Shown here: positions 3,256 through 35,611 of the stretch, one piece after another
Layout of the letters: every line of letters begins with the position of its first letter
How positions within the stretch are numbered: the stretch's first letter is position 1
Virus record (IMG/VR): IMGVR_UViG_2541047725_000010
Source of the DNA: a virus
Taxonomy: Duplodnaviria; Heunggongvirae; Uroviricota; Caudoviricetes
Reading direction: 5' to 3' (one strand)
Length of the DNA stretch: 41,240 nucleotides
Notes under the pieces: generated by a model
What the model was told of the DNA's origin: nothing
Seen by the model: only the letters and a program-made list of their open reading frames with translations
Database searches by the model: none
Made by a program: the position numbers and the translations under genes

Positions 3256-5862
3256 TTATTTCCTGCAAACTCCAGATGATGTTAATCCATCAAAAATAAC
3301 CTGCACTCTGGCAATAACAACATCAACTCCAGAAGTCGTTTCACTTGCATAACCAAGTTTTATTTTAGATACAATATCCTGAGTAAGTTCAGATATTTCA
3401 GTTTCTGCAATGTTACCAGAGGCCATGTGATTATCGTATGCCATAGAATGAATTCCATTATTGACATCGATTGAACTAGTATGTTTGTGAAAAATAGATG
3501 GGTTTACCTGAAACGAATTTGAACCGATAAGATCAGAAGATACTCCATTCATCACTGCAGTACAGCGTGGAATATTATTATCGGTTATTGTCATATGCAG
3601 ACGGTTACCAGTTAACCCCTCACCAAGTGTGACATAATACGCCAATTCTCCACCTGCATATTGTTTCCCCTCAACAATAACAGTAATCCCTCTTAATTTC
3701 TGATTAGCTAGCAAAAACTTATTACTGTCTATATAGCATTTATTTGCGGAACCAAAAACAGCCCCTTCTAAAATATCTGATGAATAGGAATAAATAAGGT
3801 CACCAGAAACAAAGGAAAGAATATCAGATACGTTTCCTTTTTTAGATAAGTTGGGAGAATAGCTATTAACTATTTCATATTGTCCTGTGATAAAATCAAG
3901 GTAAACGCCATCAGTTTTCATCTCTTTAAAGAAAATGCTATTAAAGCATCCATCAAGAACCGGTGGATATATTCTAGAGCTTGCATAAGCTGTTGGGTGA
4001 TTCTTATTATTACCACTACCAGGCGAATAAACATCTTCGTTAGTCATTGACTTTTTAAGCTTAACAGGAATCATCGGCTGCATATCAATTTTGCAGTTCC
4101 CTGAACCACCGATGCGAGGATAAAATAAACCACCAAACCTTACAATATTACTACTGAATAGTATTTCGTTATCGTTAAGTGTTATCTCAACGAAGTTTCC
4201 AATAAGTTTAAATTCAACTGAAAACAAACCAAGTGGAGCAGATAATTTAACAATATTGCGCATAAAAACACCTACAGTCCCTGTTGATGCAGTATAGTGT
4301 GTGGTTTCAAAGGCAGAGCCTGTATATTTCAAGTTAATGAAATTATTATGGTATGAAGACAATTGGAATTGAATCCCAGAACTAAGGATTTCAATATCTA
4401 CAAATTGAATCCTTACGGAGTAAGAATATGATAAATCTTCATATTCATAAGGCAATGTAACATCTTTTGAAATAGTTGCCCTCACATAATTACCAGAAAC
4501 CACATCAACCCCATCACGTACTGCATTAAAGTAACGATTAAAATCAATAAGCCCAGCGCCAACATACTGCGCATATGAACGAGTCCATCCTGCCATTGCG
4601 TTTCGTCCATTCTGAGCTTCTAAACTGCTAAATTCAGAGTCACTTGTGGTACTTGATGGGAGGATATTTGTACAAAAAACAATTTCAGGCATTGAAGTAA
4701 TATCATTCAGTTCAGCCATCAATTTAAAAAAAGTTTTCTGCGGGAAGTTACCAACATCCCAACCATCTCCGTCATTCATGCCAAAAGCAATAATAACAAC
4801 ATCAGGGTTAATATCACGAATGTAATCAATCCAGCGTCTGTTCGTGTCTGAATACCATGGGTACTGTGAGTTATAAGAAGTAATTGCTGGTGTATCTTTT
4901 CCAAGGTCATAGTACCTCATTCCACCAATTGCTCTGTTAAATAAAGTAGAACTTGGGAATTTCTCTTGCAAAACTCTCTTAAGATGAGCGGCAAAAATGC
5001 TTGATCGATCCACTGTGCTTATATTATATGGGGCACTTAAGCTGTCACCAACTAACACTATTTTTGAGTTAGGCCTTGATAATCTCTCAAGTGTTTTAGA
5101 TGTGACTAAACTGCAGGAATTAATGAACTGAGTACTATTTAGCGTCTGTTCAAGTGTATCACCAAATCTGGTACCAACGTATGATGATCCGTTGACACTT
5201 GCTAGCTTAAGGCATAAATCAGCAGTATCTGTAATTGAAAAAATAGGAACAGGACGTCCTAAACTGTCATACCCCTGAATTGAGTTTGCCCTAGAAGATG
5301 CTGATGCCATTTCGCTTACTATCTCAGGGAAGCGGAGTGTTTTAGATATGTTGCTGTTAATAACTCCTTTGATAGATGAGTCTGTATATTTCTTCGTGGA
5401 AGCGTCCTGAGGAAATAATGGATCATCAAGGTTACGAATACGATTGCCGAGTGCATCGTAGTAAGTGGCACTAAATGATGGTTTACGAAGAGCCAGCCGA
5501 GCCATGCTTTTGACTAACTGGATCAGCATCGTTAGCTTATCAAAAGCATCCTCATGCACTTCCGCAAAGAACTTACCCTGATTGCGCAGATCAGTTTCCT
5601 GTGTAACCGGTAGCTCTCGTGATATAGAAATCTTATAGCCATTGGCCAACGCCTTCGACAATATTACATTTCCACCATTGTATCCTCCGGCCCCGGTAAC
5701 TATATAATCAGTATCAAGAGTCAGTACGGTGATATTTTCATGAATATCAACAACCTGCACAATCAAATCAGATTTATTGAAAACCCTAAAGGCATACGGA
5801 AACGATGTCGTAACGCCGTTACCGGTGTATTCGTTGTGGTCAACTTCGGTTGAGACCGTCAT
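3256..5862 (-). CDS. Tailspike / receptor-binding protein with internal GDSL/SGNH esterase domain
   Basis: 868 aa; conserved N-terminal anchor MTVSTEVDHNEYTGNGVTTSFPY; SGNH blocks VLVGDSLS (about 5040-5065), NRAIGG, FGMNDGDG (about 4761-4787); GGAG RBS; distal part visibly AT-richer. Confidence 0.8.
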   Translation of the reverse strand: MTVSTEVDHNEYTGNGVTTSFPYAFRVFNKSDLIVQVVDIHENITVLTLDTDYIVTGAGGYNGGNVILSKALANGYKISISRELPVTQETDLRNQGKFFAEVHEDAFDKLTMLIQLVKSMARLALRKPSFSATYYDALGNRIRNLDDPLFPQDASTKKYTDSSIKGVINSNISKTLRFPEIVSEMASASSRANSIQGYDSLGRPVPIFSITDTADLCLKLASVNGSSYVGTRFGDTLEQTLNSTQFINSCSLVTSKTLERLSRPNSKIVLVGDSLSAPYNISTVDRSSIFAAHLKRVLQEKFPSSTLFNRAIGGMRYYDLGKDTPAITSYNSQYPWYSDTNRRWIDYIRDINPDVVIIAFGMNDGDGWDVGNFPQKTFFKLMAELNDITSMPEIVFCTNILPSSTTSDSEFSSLEAQNGRNAMAGWTRSYAQYVGAGLIDFNRYFNAVRDGVDVVSGNYVRATISKDVTLPYEYEDLSYSYSVRIQFVDIEILSSGIQFQLSSYHNNFINLKYTGSAFETTHYTASTGTVGVFMRNIVKLSAPLGLFSVEFKLIGNFVEITLNDNEILFSSNIVRFGGLFYPRIGGSGNCKIDMQPMIPVKLKKSMTNEDVYSPGSGNNKNHPTAYASSRIYPPVLDGCFNSIFFKEMKTDGVYLDFITGQYEIVNSYSPNLSKKGNVSDILSFVSGDLIYSYSSDILEGAVFGSANKCYIDSNKFLLANQKLRGITVIVEGKQYAGGELAYYVTLGEGLTGNRLHMTITDNNIPRCTAVMNGVSSDLIGSNSFQVNPSIFHKHTSSIDVNNGIHSMAYDNHMASGNIAETEISELTQDIVSKIKLGYASETTSGVDVVIARVQVIFDGLTSSGVCRK

Positions 5863-5965
5863 GTTAAATCTCCAGATAGTCGCAGCACCCGTTGCGCCGC
5901 ATATCTGGTTATTCTATTACCTGAAAAACCATATATGTATAGAAAGACTATAAATACCAATAGAT

Positions 5966-5982
5966 ATTACCTTTATGGTAAT
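5966..5982. promoter_or_regulatory. Operator-like palindrome ATTACC-TTTAT-GGTAAT
   Basis: Perfect inverted half-sites 5 bp apart; one of at least 11 copies of the same motif in intergenic regions. Confidence 0.5.
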
Positions 5983-6018
5983 TTGCAAAACGTGCTGGAT
6001 AGCAAACAAATTATTTGA

Positions 6019-6038
6019 TACTGTATAAATATACAGTT
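6019..6038 (+). promoter_or_regulatory. LexA (SOS) box overlapping the -10 region upstream of gene 6058-6315
   Basis: TACTGTATAAATATACAGTT: CTGT-N8-ACAG, 18/20 to the TACTGTATATATATACAGTA consensus; 20 bp before the GGAG RBS and ATG at 6058. Confidence 0.7.
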
Positions 6039-6057
6039 ATTGCATGGAGAAGATAAG

Positions 6058-6315
6058 ATGCAGCGGTATCACTATCCACTGGAAGACGGATTTACCGAAA
6101 GGATTCACACGCCGGGAGGCGTCAGGTCACTGGTGGAGGGATCGCACTTGATGAAATTACTCCGGGATCTCGATAAGGATGGATTTAATGTCGATGGCCC
6201 ACTTGCCGAACTGACTGCACTGATTAACTACGTCACCAGCTCACAGATGTCTATGCGGGATCTGCAAACACATCTCGACTATTGTGCCGAACAATTACGA
6301 AAACAAACCAGATAA
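6058..6315 (+). CDS. Small protein paralogous to the antirepressor C-terminal domain (SOS-controlled)
   Basis: 85 aa from ATG 6058 (track ORF 6040-6315); aligns by eye at about 50% identity with residues about 160-240 of the adjacent antirepressor (e.g. LMKLLRDLDKDGFNVDGPLAELT vs LMNLLNQLQEDGHDVSGAAAELT). Confidence 0.6.
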   Translation: MQRYHYPLEDGFTERIHTPGGVRSLVEGSHLMKLLRDLDKDGFNVDGPLAELTALINYVTSSQMSMRDLQTHLDYCAEQLRKQTR

Positions 6316-6345
6316 GGTTTGCAATTACCAAGTGGAGTGCTTATA

Positions 6346-6362
6346 TTTACCTTTGAGGTAAA
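6346..6362. promoter_or_regulatory. Operator-like palindrome TTTACC-TTTGA-GGTAAA
   Basis: Same motif family as 5966-5982. Confidence 0.45.
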
Positions 6363-6455
6363 TTTACATCGCACTCCTCTTGTGCCATAGTAATCGGGCA
6401 CTGGCAAAATCCGGTGCCGGGATTGGTCTCCCGGATTACTACAGAGGCACATATG

Positions 6456-6475
6456 CCGCATAAGCGGTTTTTTTT
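6456..6475 (+). terminator. Putative intrinsic terminator after the LexA-controlled small gene
   Basis: Short GC stem CCGC-ataa-GCGG followed by an 8-T run; sits inside a 314-bp hairpin-rich noncoding gap. Confidence 0.4.
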
Positions 6476-6629
6476 ATGTGTAAAGCGCACCTATTCTATG
6501 GTGGGCTGTGTGGGGGCACCGAAAGGTGCGCCGGGTTCCTTTGTAGCCGGTAAGACCAACTCTGCACAGTTCACCACCATCTGATTGGTCTCAGCGGTGG
6601 TGATTAACCTAACTACAAAGGTGATCGCC

Positions 6630-7322
6630 ATGAATACCAAACCTTCCATCTTTTCCTTTGAGTCATCCTGCCAGATCCGTATGTTCATGATTGACGGAGA
6701 ACCTTGGTTTGTCACCAAAGATGTGTGCAATGCTTTGAATATTGATGTTACACAAGCGAGAAAACTTGATAAAAAAGGCTGGAACAAAAAGGGGCTGTAT
6801 TCAATACAGACCCCTGGTGGAATACAAGAACTATCCATCGTTTCAGAATCAGGTCTCTACATCCTTATTCTGCGTTGCAAAGAGGCAATGACTGAGGGAA
6901 CGAGAGCATTCAGATTTCTTGAATGGGTTACAGGCGAGGTTCTTCCTCAGATCCGCCGCACCGGAAGTTACATTAAAAACTCGCTACCGCAGGAAGAACG
7001 CATAAAGATGGTTGCCGACCAGGTAGCCAACGCCACGGCGTCAGCAGTAATGCAGGCGATGAAGATAGAGAACAAAACCTACAACGCCCCGCTGAAGCCC
7101 GGCTACCGCAGCCTGATTCATTCCCCGTCTGGTGTTCTCGGCCTGACGGAGAACTCACTGCTGATGAATCTGCTGAACCAGTTACAGGAAGACGGGCACG
7201 ACGTATCGGGCGCGGCGGCGGAGCTGACCACCATGTTCTGCTACATCGTCGGTGTGAGCAAATGCCTGCGTGATATCCAGACGCACGCGGAGTACATCAA
7301 CGACAAAGCAGGGTTCTTCTGA
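6630..7322 (+). CDS. Phage antirepressor, BRO-N N-terminal domain with KilA-C/Ant-type C-terminal domain
   Basis: 230 aa from ATG 6630 (AAGGTG RBS); N-terminal FSFESSCQIRMFMIDGEPWFVTKDVCNALNI is a BRO-N signature (from memory). Confidence 0.75.
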   Translation: MNTKPSIFSFESSCQIRMFMIDGEPWFVTKDVCNALNIDVTQARKLDKKGWNKKGLYSIQTPGGIQELSIVSESGLYILILRCKEAMTEGTRAFRFLEWVTGEVLPQIRRTGSYIKNSLPQEERIKMVADQVANATASAVMQAMKIENKTYNAPLKPGYRSLIHSPSGVLGLTENSLLMNLLNQLQEDGHDVSGAAAELTTMFCYIVGVSKCLRDIQTHAEYINDKAGFF

Positions 7323-7393: not shown

Positions 7394-7410
7394 ATTACCT
7401 TAAAGGTAAA
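7394..7410. promoter_or_regulatory. Operator-like palindrome ATTACC-TTAAA-GGTAAA
   Basis: 41 bp upstream of the ATG at 7452. Confidence 0.45.
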
Positions 7411-7451: not shown

Positions 7452-7778
7452 ATGACAAAACTTGGATTCGTGATGAGAGGTCCGGTAAGAAGCGGAACTC
7501 ATGCAAAGCGTAGCAAGAGTCGTATTTTTACTGGTAAGGTTGTAGCACGTAAATCAGCTATTGGCTCGTTCAATAGTGAAAATGCGGCATTGCGCCATAT
7601 TTTTATCAGCACAAAGCCAAGAGCATCCGCTGATGTGCATACAATGACTATTCCTATCACAAAGAATATAAAGCGGATAAAAAAGCTCTCATCTGCAGAA
7701 TCAAAAGAGATATCTTTCCGCCAGCTTAACTCATTAGAAACGCATATGAAGGAAGAGGAATTCGATGTTTTTGAGTGA
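7452..7778 (+). CDS. Basic hypothetical protein, upstream partner of a toxin-like gene
   Basis: 108 aa; strong GGAG RBS; Lys/Arg-rich N-terminus; no family recognised; 14-bp overlap with the next gene. Confidence 0.5.
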   Translation: MTKLGFVMRGPVRSGTHAKRSKSRIFTGKVVARKSAIGSFNSENAALRHIFISTKPRASADVHTMTIPITKNIKRIKKLSSAESKEISFRQLNSLETHMKEEEFDVFE

Positions 7779-8277
7779 GTATAGCGGGAAGGTTATACCT
7801 ACTGGTGAGTTTAAAACTGATGACTTTCTGATTTCGCTAAAAGATGCTTTTAAACAACACTGGCGTCATGGTCATCATCCTGATCTGGGAAAAGATACTC
7901 TTTTTGAAAGACCAGACGAAGTATTAGGTTTCCATCTCAGAAAGGTTCATGTCAATATTGGTGAATATGCATCATATTCATACTCATGTACTGAACAGTG
8001 TTGGGATGAGTGGTCATATGGATTGATTGATGAACAAGGAAATTACAGGCCAAAACCAACCAGTAACGCATATCTCATATATGCAGTCAATGAAATAAGA
8101 GATGCAGCCTTACTAGCTTATTGGGACCCGCCCGCACACACCAAAGCTAACGCAAAAGTTTGGATGGATTCCGTATTGAATTTCACAAAATTATTTCATG
8201 AACGAACGAATACAGCTCCACTTAGTAGAAATGTTTATCCGTGGGATTATTCGTACAAATCCAAAAAGCCTGCATAG
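7765..8277 (+). CDS. YafO-like toxin-family protein (putative ribosome-dependent mRNA interferase)
   Basis: 170 aa; AAGGAAGAGG RBS inside the upstream gene; by-eye similarity to E. coli YafO recalled from memory (G[KR]D-x-L[FY], RKVHVNI vs ERVAHIHL, AYLIYAV vs AHLVYCQ); unverified. Confidence 0.45.
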   Translation: MFLSEYSGKVIPTGEFKTDDFLISLKDAFKQHWRHGHHPDLGKDTLFERPDEVLGFHLRKVHVNIGEYASYSYSCTEQCWDEWSYGLIDEQGNYRPKPTSNAYLIYAVNEIRDAALLAYWDPPAHTKANAKVWMDSVLNFTKLFHERTNTAPLSRNVYPWDYSYKSKKPA

Positions 8278-25111: not shown

Positions 25112-25128
25112 ATTACCTTTCAGGTAAC
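25112..25128. promoter_or_regulatory. Operator-like palindrome ATTACC-TTTCA-GGTAAC
   Basis: Upstream of the head operon; a TTGACA hexamer lies at 25091-25096. Confidence 0.45.
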
Positions 25129-25449: not shown

Positions 25450-25526
25450 GTGGCATTAGCTCAGTTGGACAGAGCAACCGCCTTCTAAGCGGTTGGTCGC
25501 AGGTTCGAATCCTGCATGCCACGCCA
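25450..25526 (+). tRNA. tRNA-Arg, anticodon UCU (phage-encoded)
   Basis: Hand-folded cloverleaf: 7-bp acceptor GTGGCAT/ATGCCAC, D-stem GCTC/GAGC, anticodon stem ACCGC/GCGGT with loop CTTCTAA, T-stem GCAGG/CCTGC with GGTTCGAATCC, discriminator G and encoded CCA. Confidence 0.85.
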
Positions 25527-34872: not shown

Positions 34873-34955
34873 AGCTATTGCCTGATATTTATTTCAGATA
34901 ATAAATATTCACCCATAAGGTAACAAAAATCAAGGATAGTTACCTATGGGGTGCA

Positions 34956-34972
34956 TTTACCTGTTGGGTAAT
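34956..34972. promoter_or_regulatory. Operator-like palindrome TTTACC-TGTTG-GGTAAT in the divergent immunity region
   Basis: Within the 154-bp gap between the cro-like and repressor-like genes; a second inverted pair GGTAAC...GTTACC lies at 34919-34944. Confidence 0.5.
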
Positions 34973-35026: not shown

Positions 35027-35611
35027 ATGAAAAGTATCCAGGACGTCCGCAGGCAAAATCTCAACGACTTGATCGACCGTGAATTCAATGGTGTTCAGAC
35101 GCGGATGGCAGAAAAACTTGGAACTCAGGCAAATCTGGTAAACCGCTGGGCTCTTGGCAAGAAGGTTATCGGCGACCAGGTTGCGCGAAAAATTGAAGCT
35201 GCCGCCAATAAACCCCGTAACTGGCTTGATATCGATCGCTCGCTTTCTCAGGAAGGTTTTCAGCCTGTCGGCCCAAGCGACATTGGTCAGCTGGCGGCTC
35301 ACAACCTGGAACGCTGGATGAGCGAAAGCCGCGACCTTTCAACACAGGGAAAACTTCACCGCGCATCCGGCGTCGCCCAGGTGACAATCAGCCGCCTGTT
35401 AAACAATGAGGTCAGCGTTTCCATTTCCACCCTGGAGAATGTTGCATCCGCATTCGGGCGTCACGGCTATGAATTACTGATTCACCCGCACGACCCTGCG
35501 ACCATCAACTATGACCGCTCGCGCTACGCATTGTTACCCGAAACCGAGAAAGCAAAGATCGAAAGTTACATTGAATTTGTCATCAACCAGAACGAAAAAA
35601 ACAAACAATAA
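35027..35611 (+). CDS. Repressor-like regulator with two HTH domains, no recognisable S24 peptidase domain
   Basis: 194 aa; two HTH-like segments (GVQTRMAEKLGTQANLVNRW and ASGVAQVTISRLLNNEVSVS); divergent from the cro-like gene. Confidence 0.6.
   Translation: MKSIQDVRRQNLNDLIDREFNGVQTRMAEKLGTQANLVNRWALGKKVIGDQVARKIEAAANKPRNWLDIDRSLSQEGFQPVGPSDIGQLAAHNLERWMSESRDLSTQGKLHRASGVAQVTISRLLNNEVSVSISTLENVASAFGRHGYELLIHPHDPATINYDRSRYALLPETEKAKIESYIEFVINQNEKNKQ

Follow-up and report, generated by a model that had tools for sequence, protein, structure and literature searches.

Two antirepressor genes with one common repressor-binding domain and different predicted controls in an epsilon15/phiV10-like prophage of Escherichia coli

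The stretch of DNA considered here, referred to throughout as the window, is the whole of IMG/VR virus record IMGVR_UViG_2541047725_000010 (41,240 nucleotides, Caudoviricetes), and the system in question is the locus at 5,966 to 7,322, which encodes a small protein, Ant, and a larger one, BRO-Ant, in which a BRO-N domain is joined to an Ant-like C-terminal domain (Ant-C). This locus is likely to be an induction switch built from two antirepressors that have one repressor-binding domain in common and are subject to different controls. The first control would be exerted by the host LexA protein at an SOS box in front of the small gene. The second would combine the phage repressor, Rep, acting at a separate promoter, with a C4-type antisense RNA that masks the ribosome-binding site of the larger gene. 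Judged by nucleotide identity, the window is an epsilon15/phiV10-like (genus Uetakevirus) prophage of E. coli, and the core of the locus is already established biology in the sister phage SPC32H, so that much of what follows is largely known. The presence of two differently controlled antirepressors with one common Rep-binding domain appears to be undescribed, and it represents a modest extension rather than a new principle.

Coordinates of all the features discussed are collected in Table 1. Two questions are central to the locus. What connects DNA damage to the loss of a repressor that has no recognisable cleavage domain, and what is the contribution of a second antirepressor behind an RNA gate?

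The small antirepressor, its LexA box and the Rep repressor

The evidence that carries the first part of the argument is homology to the SPC32H Rep/Ant switch. The small protein matches PDB entry 5D50_E, 'Anti-repressor protein', with an E-value of 3.5e-46 (residues 2-84 against 3-85), and is 87% identical to the product of the SPC32H gene annotated ant. The SPC32H GenBank record uses the gene names ant and rep, and there, as in the window, ant diverges from its neighbour, the tailspike gene. The presumed target of the small protein, the product of 35027-35611, contains HTH_3-type domains, matches PDB 5D50_A, 'Repressor', over its full length (E 4e-42) and is 42% identical to SPC32H Rep. A first-pass annotation of the window had described this protein as repressor-like, with no obvious RecA-cleavable S24 domain, and a search for Peptidase_S24 indeed gave no match at E <= 0.1. 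The SPC32H system (Kim & Ryu 2013 J Virol; Kim et al. 2016 PNAS; PDB 5D50, 5D4Z) therefore resembles the window in its genus, in the location of ant beside the tail-fibre gene, in the close identity of Ant, in a homologous LexA box and Rep operator upstream, in a Rep without S24 and in the same dispersed operator motif. It differs in the much lower identity of Rep, in the absence of an isrK-C4-BRO-Ant cassette and in that its ant is directly followed by convergent late genes.

According to PMC7380047, cleavage of LexA in SPC32H leads to synthesis of Ant, which inhibits the repressor by protein-protein contact, and bioRxiv 2021.09.07.459249 describes SPC32H Ant as a tetramer. That Ant breaks the Rep tetramer is given in secondary sources (PMC7380047, bioRxiv 2021.09.07.459249, PMC9986798), and PMC9986798 identifies the tetramerisation domain of Rep as also being its Ant-binding domain.

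The near-consensus LexA box that the first-pass annotation had noted before the small gene is real. It is the sole site in the 41 kb when up to three mismatches are permitted, and no such site appeared in 100 shuffled sequences. The window contains four CTGT-N8-ACAG cores, and only the core at 6019-6038 has an A+T spacer. The 3' end of the box lies 19 bp before the ant ATG, with a Shine-Dalgarno sequence, GGAG, at 6046-6049. The box is homologous, column for column, to that of SPC32H, and in an alignment of nine uetakeviruses with hosts in Escherichia, Salmonella, Enterobacter and Klebsiella the core is kept in the same columns in seven of the nine relatives. Two Klebsiella uetakeviruses have ATGT for CTGT in one half-site together with a one-base insertion, and ant may be under weaker or altered SOS control in these phages. 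A natural variant is also informative, in that SPC32H and SPC32N differ at two positions over the 6.2 kb around ant, and one of these, the only difference within that intergenic region, converts the ACAG half-site of the LexA box to AAAG (C to A, at the base that is C6034 in the window). Kim and Ryu are said to have found in 2013 that SPC32H Rep stays uncleaved in the SOS response and is inactivated by the small Ant, the promoter of which is overlapped by a LexA site, and that SPC32N, two nucleotides different, has a mutation in this LexA site and makes Ant constitutively. Binding of LexA at 6019-6038 is predicted. Together with the SPC32H homologues, the retention of the box among relatives and the half-site change in SPC32N support the earlier proposal that induction proceeds through LexA de-repression of an antirepressor.

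The claim that the box sits over a -10 region was not confirmed, as the promoter scan returned no sigma-70 site of 9/12 at this position. A candidate ant promoter can be read by eye at 5996-6024, which scores below the 9/12 threshold of the scan; its CTGGA.A block and TAC-TGT are conserved in the uetakevirus alignment, and it would place the LexA box from -10 to about +7.

For the first stage of the switch, in the lysogen, host LexA would occupy the 6019-6038 box and the 85-residue Ant would be silent. DNA damage would then result in cleavage of LexA, synthesis of Ant and disruption of the DNA-binding tetramer of Rep, leading to induction. By analogy with the SPC32H experiments on the homologous proteins, it is very probable that LexA cleavage de-represses ant and that Ant disassembles Rep.

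Where does Rep act? The palindrome TTACC-N5-GGTAA is by far the commonest short inverted repeat of the window, with 11 exact copies against fewer than one expected. The rep gene is bracketed by the copies at 34957, 35669 and 35731, plus one at 34909 with a single mismatch. SPC32H has 10 copies in a mirror-image arrangement, and its rep is likewise flanked on both sides. A variant pattern, TTACCT-N4-AGGTAA, gave no matches in the window, the correct spacing being N5. For the operator between the tail-fibre gene and ant, the same site upstream of the ant homologue is annotated in the epsilon15 GenBank record as protein_bind 'repressor'. The operators are scattered over the whole prophage, mostly between genes, in a manner reminiscent of the C1 operators of P1, and this dispersal suggests direct control by Rep of many promoters beyond the immunity region. 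Within the tail-fibre/ant intergenic region there is also a second conserved block at 5912-5940, TATTACC..AAACC.TATATG.AT, which holds an operator half-site, and the epsilon15 record annotates a site for integration host factor (IHF) beside the operator of this region.

The large antirepressor and its proposed RNA gate

The first-pass annotation had assigned a BRO-N antirepressor downstream of the small gene, and the BRO-N domain is confirmed by a match to PF02498 (E 1.6e-13, 51.5 bits against a cutoff of 25.6, residues 16-106). The C-terminal domain on its own matches 5D50_E (E 4.9e-14, residues 3-79 of 86), and in BLASTP the small Ant aligns with the 230-residue protein without gaps over residues 149-222 (32/74 identities, 43%, E 8e-17). 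The paralogy that had been proposed by eye is thus upheld by formal alignment, and the figure of about 50% identity that went with it is not. In each phage compared, the identity between small Ant and Ant-C is 38-45%, against 52-99% between orthologues. The duplication is thus an old one, and a recent tandem duplication was rejected on these figures. The idea that the duplicated domain is the repressor-binding part is borne out, since the small protein is the characterised antirepressor. The small gene is misplaced as an accessory paralogue of the larger: it is instead the primary SOS antirepressor, and relatives such as SPC32H, epsilon15 and BUCT554 have it alone.

The two genes are separated by 314 bp, and the content of this interval would set their controls apart. 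After ant there is a stable hairpin enclosing a Rep operator (6347-6361) that lies one base from the -35 element of the isrK promoter, PisrK. The end of this promoter is 6 nt from the 5' end of IsrK, a small RNA (sRNA) that closes with an intrinsic terminator, and IsrK is followed by a C4-type RNA and then the BRO-Ant leader. In all five cassette-bearing uetakeviruses compared, 48-51 bp separate the start of the operator from the isrK 5' end downstream of it. The similar isrK promoters of four phages from outside the genus, Hafnia phage yong2, APSE-1, VT2-Sakai and Salmonella phage 118970_sal3, are without the operator. Binding of Rep at the PisrK operator is predicted. The Rfam family c4-a1b1 overlaps the IsrK element in APSE-1 and VT2-Sakai.

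The C4 RNA matches the full Rfam model, and its minimum free energy (MFE) fold agrees with the family structure. Its pairing was assessed by exact k-mer complementarity and by covariation. Two segments of the RNA, a' and b', find complements in the BRO-Ant leader (a2 and b2) and again in IsrK (a1 and b1), where they would act as decoys. Across nine phages this three-way relationship covaries: a' occurs in three forms (AGACCAA, ACGCCAA and GTCTCAA) and b' in six, with a1 and a2 following a' in every phage and b1 and b2 following b' nearly always. For instance, the window has AGACCAA with CCTTTGTAG, against ACGCCAA with CCTTTTAG in phiV10 and TL-2011b. Whole-molecule RNAduplex comparison of C4 with the leader or with IsrK was uninformative: no more than 8-10 of 300 shuffles scored equally well, but such duplexes take no account of intramolecular structure. 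An open reading frame (ORF) of 28 codons within the C4 RNA, the coding status of which is doubtful, ends 45 nt before the BRO-Ant ATG.

The second stage of the switch would thus have the BRO-Ant gene read from a promoter of its own, PisrK, whose -35 element adjoins a Rep operator. The b' segment of C4 would pair with the ribosome-binding site of BRO-Ant and a' with a site 28 nt upstream, preventing translation in the lysogen, and the look-alike sites a1 and b1 of IsrK could titrate C4. The arrangement itself is strongly supported by the sequence and its covariation, and its function is inferred from immI of P1 and isrK of Gifsy-1. That BRO-Ant is kept silent in the lysogen by Rep on PisrK together with C4 masking of the ribosome-binding site is, on this evidence, reasonably likely. 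The large antirepressor would then lie in an RNA-gated cassette of the P1 immI or Gifsy-1 isrK type, and need not be under SOS control.

The likeness to immI of P1 and P7 (c4, icd, ant1/2, with the C1-controlled Op51) is extensive. In both, an RNA of the C4 family shares a transcript with the antirepressor that it represses, a' and b' pair with a2 and b2 at a ribosome-binding site, there is a further copy of the targets, a1/b1, upstream, an operator for the main repressor lies at the promoter, and specificity variants exist between related phages. The a/b nomenclature and the Op51 operator are reportedly from the work of Citron and Schuster in 1990 and of Heisig and colleagues in 1989. The window differs from immI in that b2 overlaps the antirepressor gene's own ribosome-binding site, in that a1/b1 are within a terminated sRNA and in that the antirepressor is unrelated, being a fusion of BRO-N and Ant-C. 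At the window locus there is no ORF like icd, on whose translation ant expression depends in immI, only the 28-codon frame inside C4. In P1, Ant is under the control of C1, C4 RNA and Icd (PMC8201110).

A second comparison is with the isrK-orf45-anrP-isrJ locus of Gifsy-1 (Hershko-Shalev et al. 2016, PMC4825925), where a terminated IsrK is likewise followed by a conserved structured region, to which IsrK is complementary, and by an antirepressor gene. IsrK supplied in trans raises translation of the AnrP antirepressor about 140-fold (PMC4825925), and the orf45 region is conserved as nucleotides and not as protein (PMC4825925), which fits the region being a C4 RNA. The differences are that the 28-codon frame of the window stops well before its antirepressor gene, in contrast to the AUGA overlap of orf45 and anrP in Gifsy-1 (PMC4825925), and that the window has a Rep operator at the promoter and an SOS-controlled paralogue immediately upstream. 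No Rfam match to isrJ was found in the window.

Between the window and ZX5, identity is 96-100% as far as about 6410 and returns to that level at about 6947, but over 6410-6946 it is only 50-90%. The decoy sites a1/b1, the C4 RNA, the leader targets a2/b2 and the BRO-N domain have thus been swapped as a block that leaves small ant, the operator-bearing PisrK and Ant-C in place. Because this mosaic block is exchanged, near-identical E. coli prophages carry different C4 specificity types, the a' of ZX5 being of the phiV10 form (ACGCCAA) and that of the window AGACCAA.

Relation between the two controls

The first-pass annotation had joined 6058-6315 and 6630-7322 into a single SOS-controlled module, and this is the likeliest alternative to separate control. 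As a single SOS operon, transcripts from the LexA-controlled promoter would pass both the hairpin at 6329-6382 and the IsrK terminator, such that the two antirepressors were directly SOS-induced, and C4 would be titrated by IsrK sequence that the ant mRNA carries at its 3' end. Passage through the hairpin is plausible, in that it has no trailing U-tract and was not scored by the terminator scan, and there is no canonical terminator between the ant stop and isrK; the IsrK terminator beyond it is a good one, although in Gifsy-1 transcripts partly read through their IsrK terminator (PMC4825925). Even a transcript that reached BRO-Ant would still meet C4 at the ribosome-binding site. The genetic arrangement also argues for separation, as a distinct and conserved promoter, equipped with a Rep operator, lies ahead of isrK, TL-2011b keeps the cassette despite an insert of about 1.1 kb between ant and isrK, and the ant gene of relatives that have no cassette forms a monocistronic unit with a terminator behind it. 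We regard the single operon as rather unlikely, and separate control of the two genes as the better account. The TL-2011b insert (3280-4368) is annotated only as 'similar to hypothetical protein' and holds an additional Rep operator at 4029.

How would two separately controlled antirepressors act together? Removal of Rep by the small Ant would de-repress PisrK, IsrK would rise and titrate C4, and the large antirepressor would be made. It would in turn attack Rep through its paralogous C-terminal domain, strengthening the switch and providing a second immunity specificity, of the P1/P7 RNA type. We infer this third stage, from Rep loss through IsrK and C4 titration to reinforcement by BRO-Ant with a second immunity specificity, only tentatively, and place it close to the balance point, on the side of doubt. 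A more committed version is a two-stage latch, in which SOS-made Ant, under LexA, unlocks a self-reinforcing BRO-N-fused paralogue held by the Rep-controlled promoter and the C4/IsrK gate, with exchangeable IsrK/C4/BRO-N immunity types deciding cross-induction; this we consider speculative and rather unlikely as it stands. In such a scheme, SOS-induced ant transcripts that bear IsrK sequence at their 3' end may help. If it were true, the exchangeable IsrK/C4/BRO-N segment would set the RNA immunity type and hence cross-induction between near-identical prophages.

Is BRO-Ant a Rep antagonist at all? Its Ant-like domain could serve for oligomerisation only, the protein having another role such as DNA binding through BRO-N, anti-defence or superinfection. 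Proteins with BRO-N differ widely in function, phiV10 has a frameshift in the gene, SPC32H lacks it, and in other phages the same RNA cassette stands upstream of unrelated proteins. Yet the match of the domain extends over the entire Rep-binding Ant, and Ant-C is kept wherever the cassette sits in a uetakevirus though the BRO-N part is exchanged: BRO-N with Ant-C is found in seven of seven cassette-bearing uetakeviruses (the window phage, TL-2011b, ZX5, Tyrion, two Klebsiella phages and, with the frameshift, phiV10), and SPC32H, epsilon15 and BUCT554 have neither the RNA cassette nor a second Ant copy. There is, in addition, a functional result from vB_EcoP_ZX5, whose ORF4 'anti-repressor' (PMC9782041) is the BRO-Ant orthologue with the same neighbours, although its IsrK/C4 specificity segment and BRO-N domain are exchanged relative to the window. 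ORF4 is 80% identical to the large antirepressor overall and identical at 90 of 91 residues (98.9%) of the C-terminal domain, and its overexpression lowered the prophage titre from 10^9 to 10^6 (about 1000-fold) and repressor transcription by 75% (PMC9782041). The words 'LexA' and 'SPC32H' are absent from that paper. A role other than antagonism of Rep is therefore unlikely. That the small protein instead, or besides, modulates the large one through mixed oligomers that activate or poison BRO-Ant is the least probable alternative, for although the 43% identity spans the whole domain and Ant is reported as a tetramer, SPC32H, epsilon15 and BUCT554 have a small Ant and no BRO-Ant, the small Ant of SPC32H is described as an antirepressor by itself, and paralogue lineages about 38-45% identical in every phage suggest long independent evolution.

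Several considerations count against two separately controlled Rep antagonists. LexA binding, Ant-Rep binding and the RNA pairing are deduced by homology or from sequence; the promoter scan gave nothing of consensus grade at the LexA box; and the promoter to which the operator at 5966-5982 belongs may be that of the divergent tail-fibre gene instead of ant. Rep of the window has merely 42% identity to SPC32H Rep, and with Ant-C only 43% identical to small Ant its binding to Rep is not guaranteed. The large antirepressor is evidently dispensable, because Ant-C is frameshifted in phiV10 and SPC32H and epsilon15 are without the cassette. Finally, the Gifsy-1 authors ascribe the action of IsrK to refolding of mRNA in cis as well as in trans and to coupling with orf45, not to titration of C4.

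A functional parallel to the first control exists in Tum of phage 186, GfoA/GfhA/GftA of the Gifsy phages and AntC of N15 (PMC3121763), where the small product of a LexA-boxed gene, sited outside the immunity region, inactivates a non-cleavable repressor. The resemblance is one of function only, as the Pfam and NCBIfam scans of the window proteins gave no shared family, and the window operon is without a dinI homologue.

If the SPC32H mechanism is transferred to these phages, it would explain how DNA-damaging antibiotics induce O-antigen-modifying prophages without repressor cleavage, and the prophages concerned include relatives of phiV10 and TL-2011b in enterohaemorrhagic E. coli (EHEC). A second antirepressor behind a P1-like RNA gate, of types that differ among close relatives, would offer a handle on cross-induction and on the heteroimmunity of co-resident prophages.

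Feature coordinates, prevalence and neighbouring observations

Table 1 Features of the antirepressor locus and of the Rep system, in window coordinates
Feature	Position	Strand	Basis or remark
Putative Rep operator ATTACC-N5-GGTAAT, tail-fibre/ant intergenic	5966-5982	.	invariant in 9 relatives
Candidate ant promoter TGGATA (5996-6001), 17-nt spacer, TACTGT (6019-6024)	5996-6024	+	read by eye
LexA (SOS) box TACTGTATAAATATACAGTT	6019-6038	.	18/20 consensus positions
Small antirepressor gene ant (85 aa)	6058-6315	+	orthologue of SPC32H Ant
Stable hairpin after ant, enclosing second Rep operator (6347-6361)	6329-6382	+	-33.1 kcal/mol, z -4.4
isrK promoter TTTACA, 17-nt spacer, TG-CATAGT	6363-6391	+	promoter scan 9/12, extended -10
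IsrK sRNA	6398-6474	+	Rfam RF01394, 73.7 bits (gathering score 50)
IsrK decoy site a1 TTGGTCT, in hairpin loop	6423-6429	+	complementary to a'
IsrK decoy site b1 CTACAGAGG	6439-6447	+	pairs with b', one G-U
IsrK intrinsic terminator	6455-6474	+	terminator scan
C4-type antisense RNA	6494-6581	+	Rfam RF01695, 78.6 bits (gathering score 45), full model
28-codon ORF inside C4 RNA, position of Gifsy-1 orf45	6498-6584	+	coding status doubtful
C4 hairpin-2 loop b' CCTTTGTAG	6538-6546	+	exact complement of b2
C4 joining segment a' AGACCAA	6553-6559	+	complement of a2
BRO-Ant leader target a2 TTGGTCT	6585-6591	+	exact 7-nt complementarity to a'
BRO-Ant leader target b2 CTACAAAGG, overlapping Shine-Dalgarno AAAGGTGA	6613-6621	+	exact 9-nt complementarity to b'
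Large antirepressor (230 aa): BRO-N (6675-6947) and Ant-like C-terminal domain (7074-7304)	6630-7322	+	
Third Rep operator of the region, upstream of the 7452-8277 genes	7395-7409	.	one at the equivalent place in TL-2011b
Rep, non-cleavable repressor, presumed target of both antirepressors	35027-35611	+	PDB 5D50_A homologue
Exact TTACC-N5-GGTAA copies	5967, 6347, 7395, 25113, 25727, 28804, 32564, 32626, 34957, 35669, 35731		

The segment 5860-7460 is 91-98% identical in nucleotides to EC.W1-9, TL-2011b, ZX5 and phiV10, temperate podophages of the epsilon15/phiV10 group, and 100% identical to prophages of several complete E. coli chromosomes. Whole or in part, the module has a match in 542 of 5426 complete E. 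coli genomes (~10%), with query coverage of at least 80% in 131. In the E. coli chromosomes listed, RefSeq labels the small antirepressor a 'hypothetical protein'. NCBIfam has no model for either antirepressor, and neither Pfam nor NCBIfam has one that covers the small protein, which is thus an annotation gap, given that a crystal structure of a homologue exists. A sub-threshold Pfam match of the small protein to DUF724 was judged spurious.

In phiV10 a frameshift within the Ant-like domain divides the BRO-N antirepressor (3571-4250), which is annotated as p23 and p22; either the protein has probably lost its activity or the frameshift is an error of sequencing. One E. coli protein has the Ant-like C-terminal domain fused to AntA (PF08346) and not to BRO-N, a hint that the Rep-binding domain may be a module portable between proteins; the homologue search with Ant-C returned mainly short fragments and gave no usable census of architectures.

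The BRO-Ant gene is followed by two overlapping genes, 7452-7778 and 7765-8277 (108 and 170 residues; phrog_5933 and phrog_1651, of unknown function), the second of which has a weak, sub-threshold match to the YafO toxin (E 9.5e-4). Counterparts of the pair also follow in ZX5 and TL-2011b, and the two may be a moron or a toxin-like pair. Further along the prophage, a tRNA gene at 25450-25523 (73.3 bits) lies between the Rep operators at 25113 and 25727, and SPC32H has a tRNA-Arg at the corresponding place.

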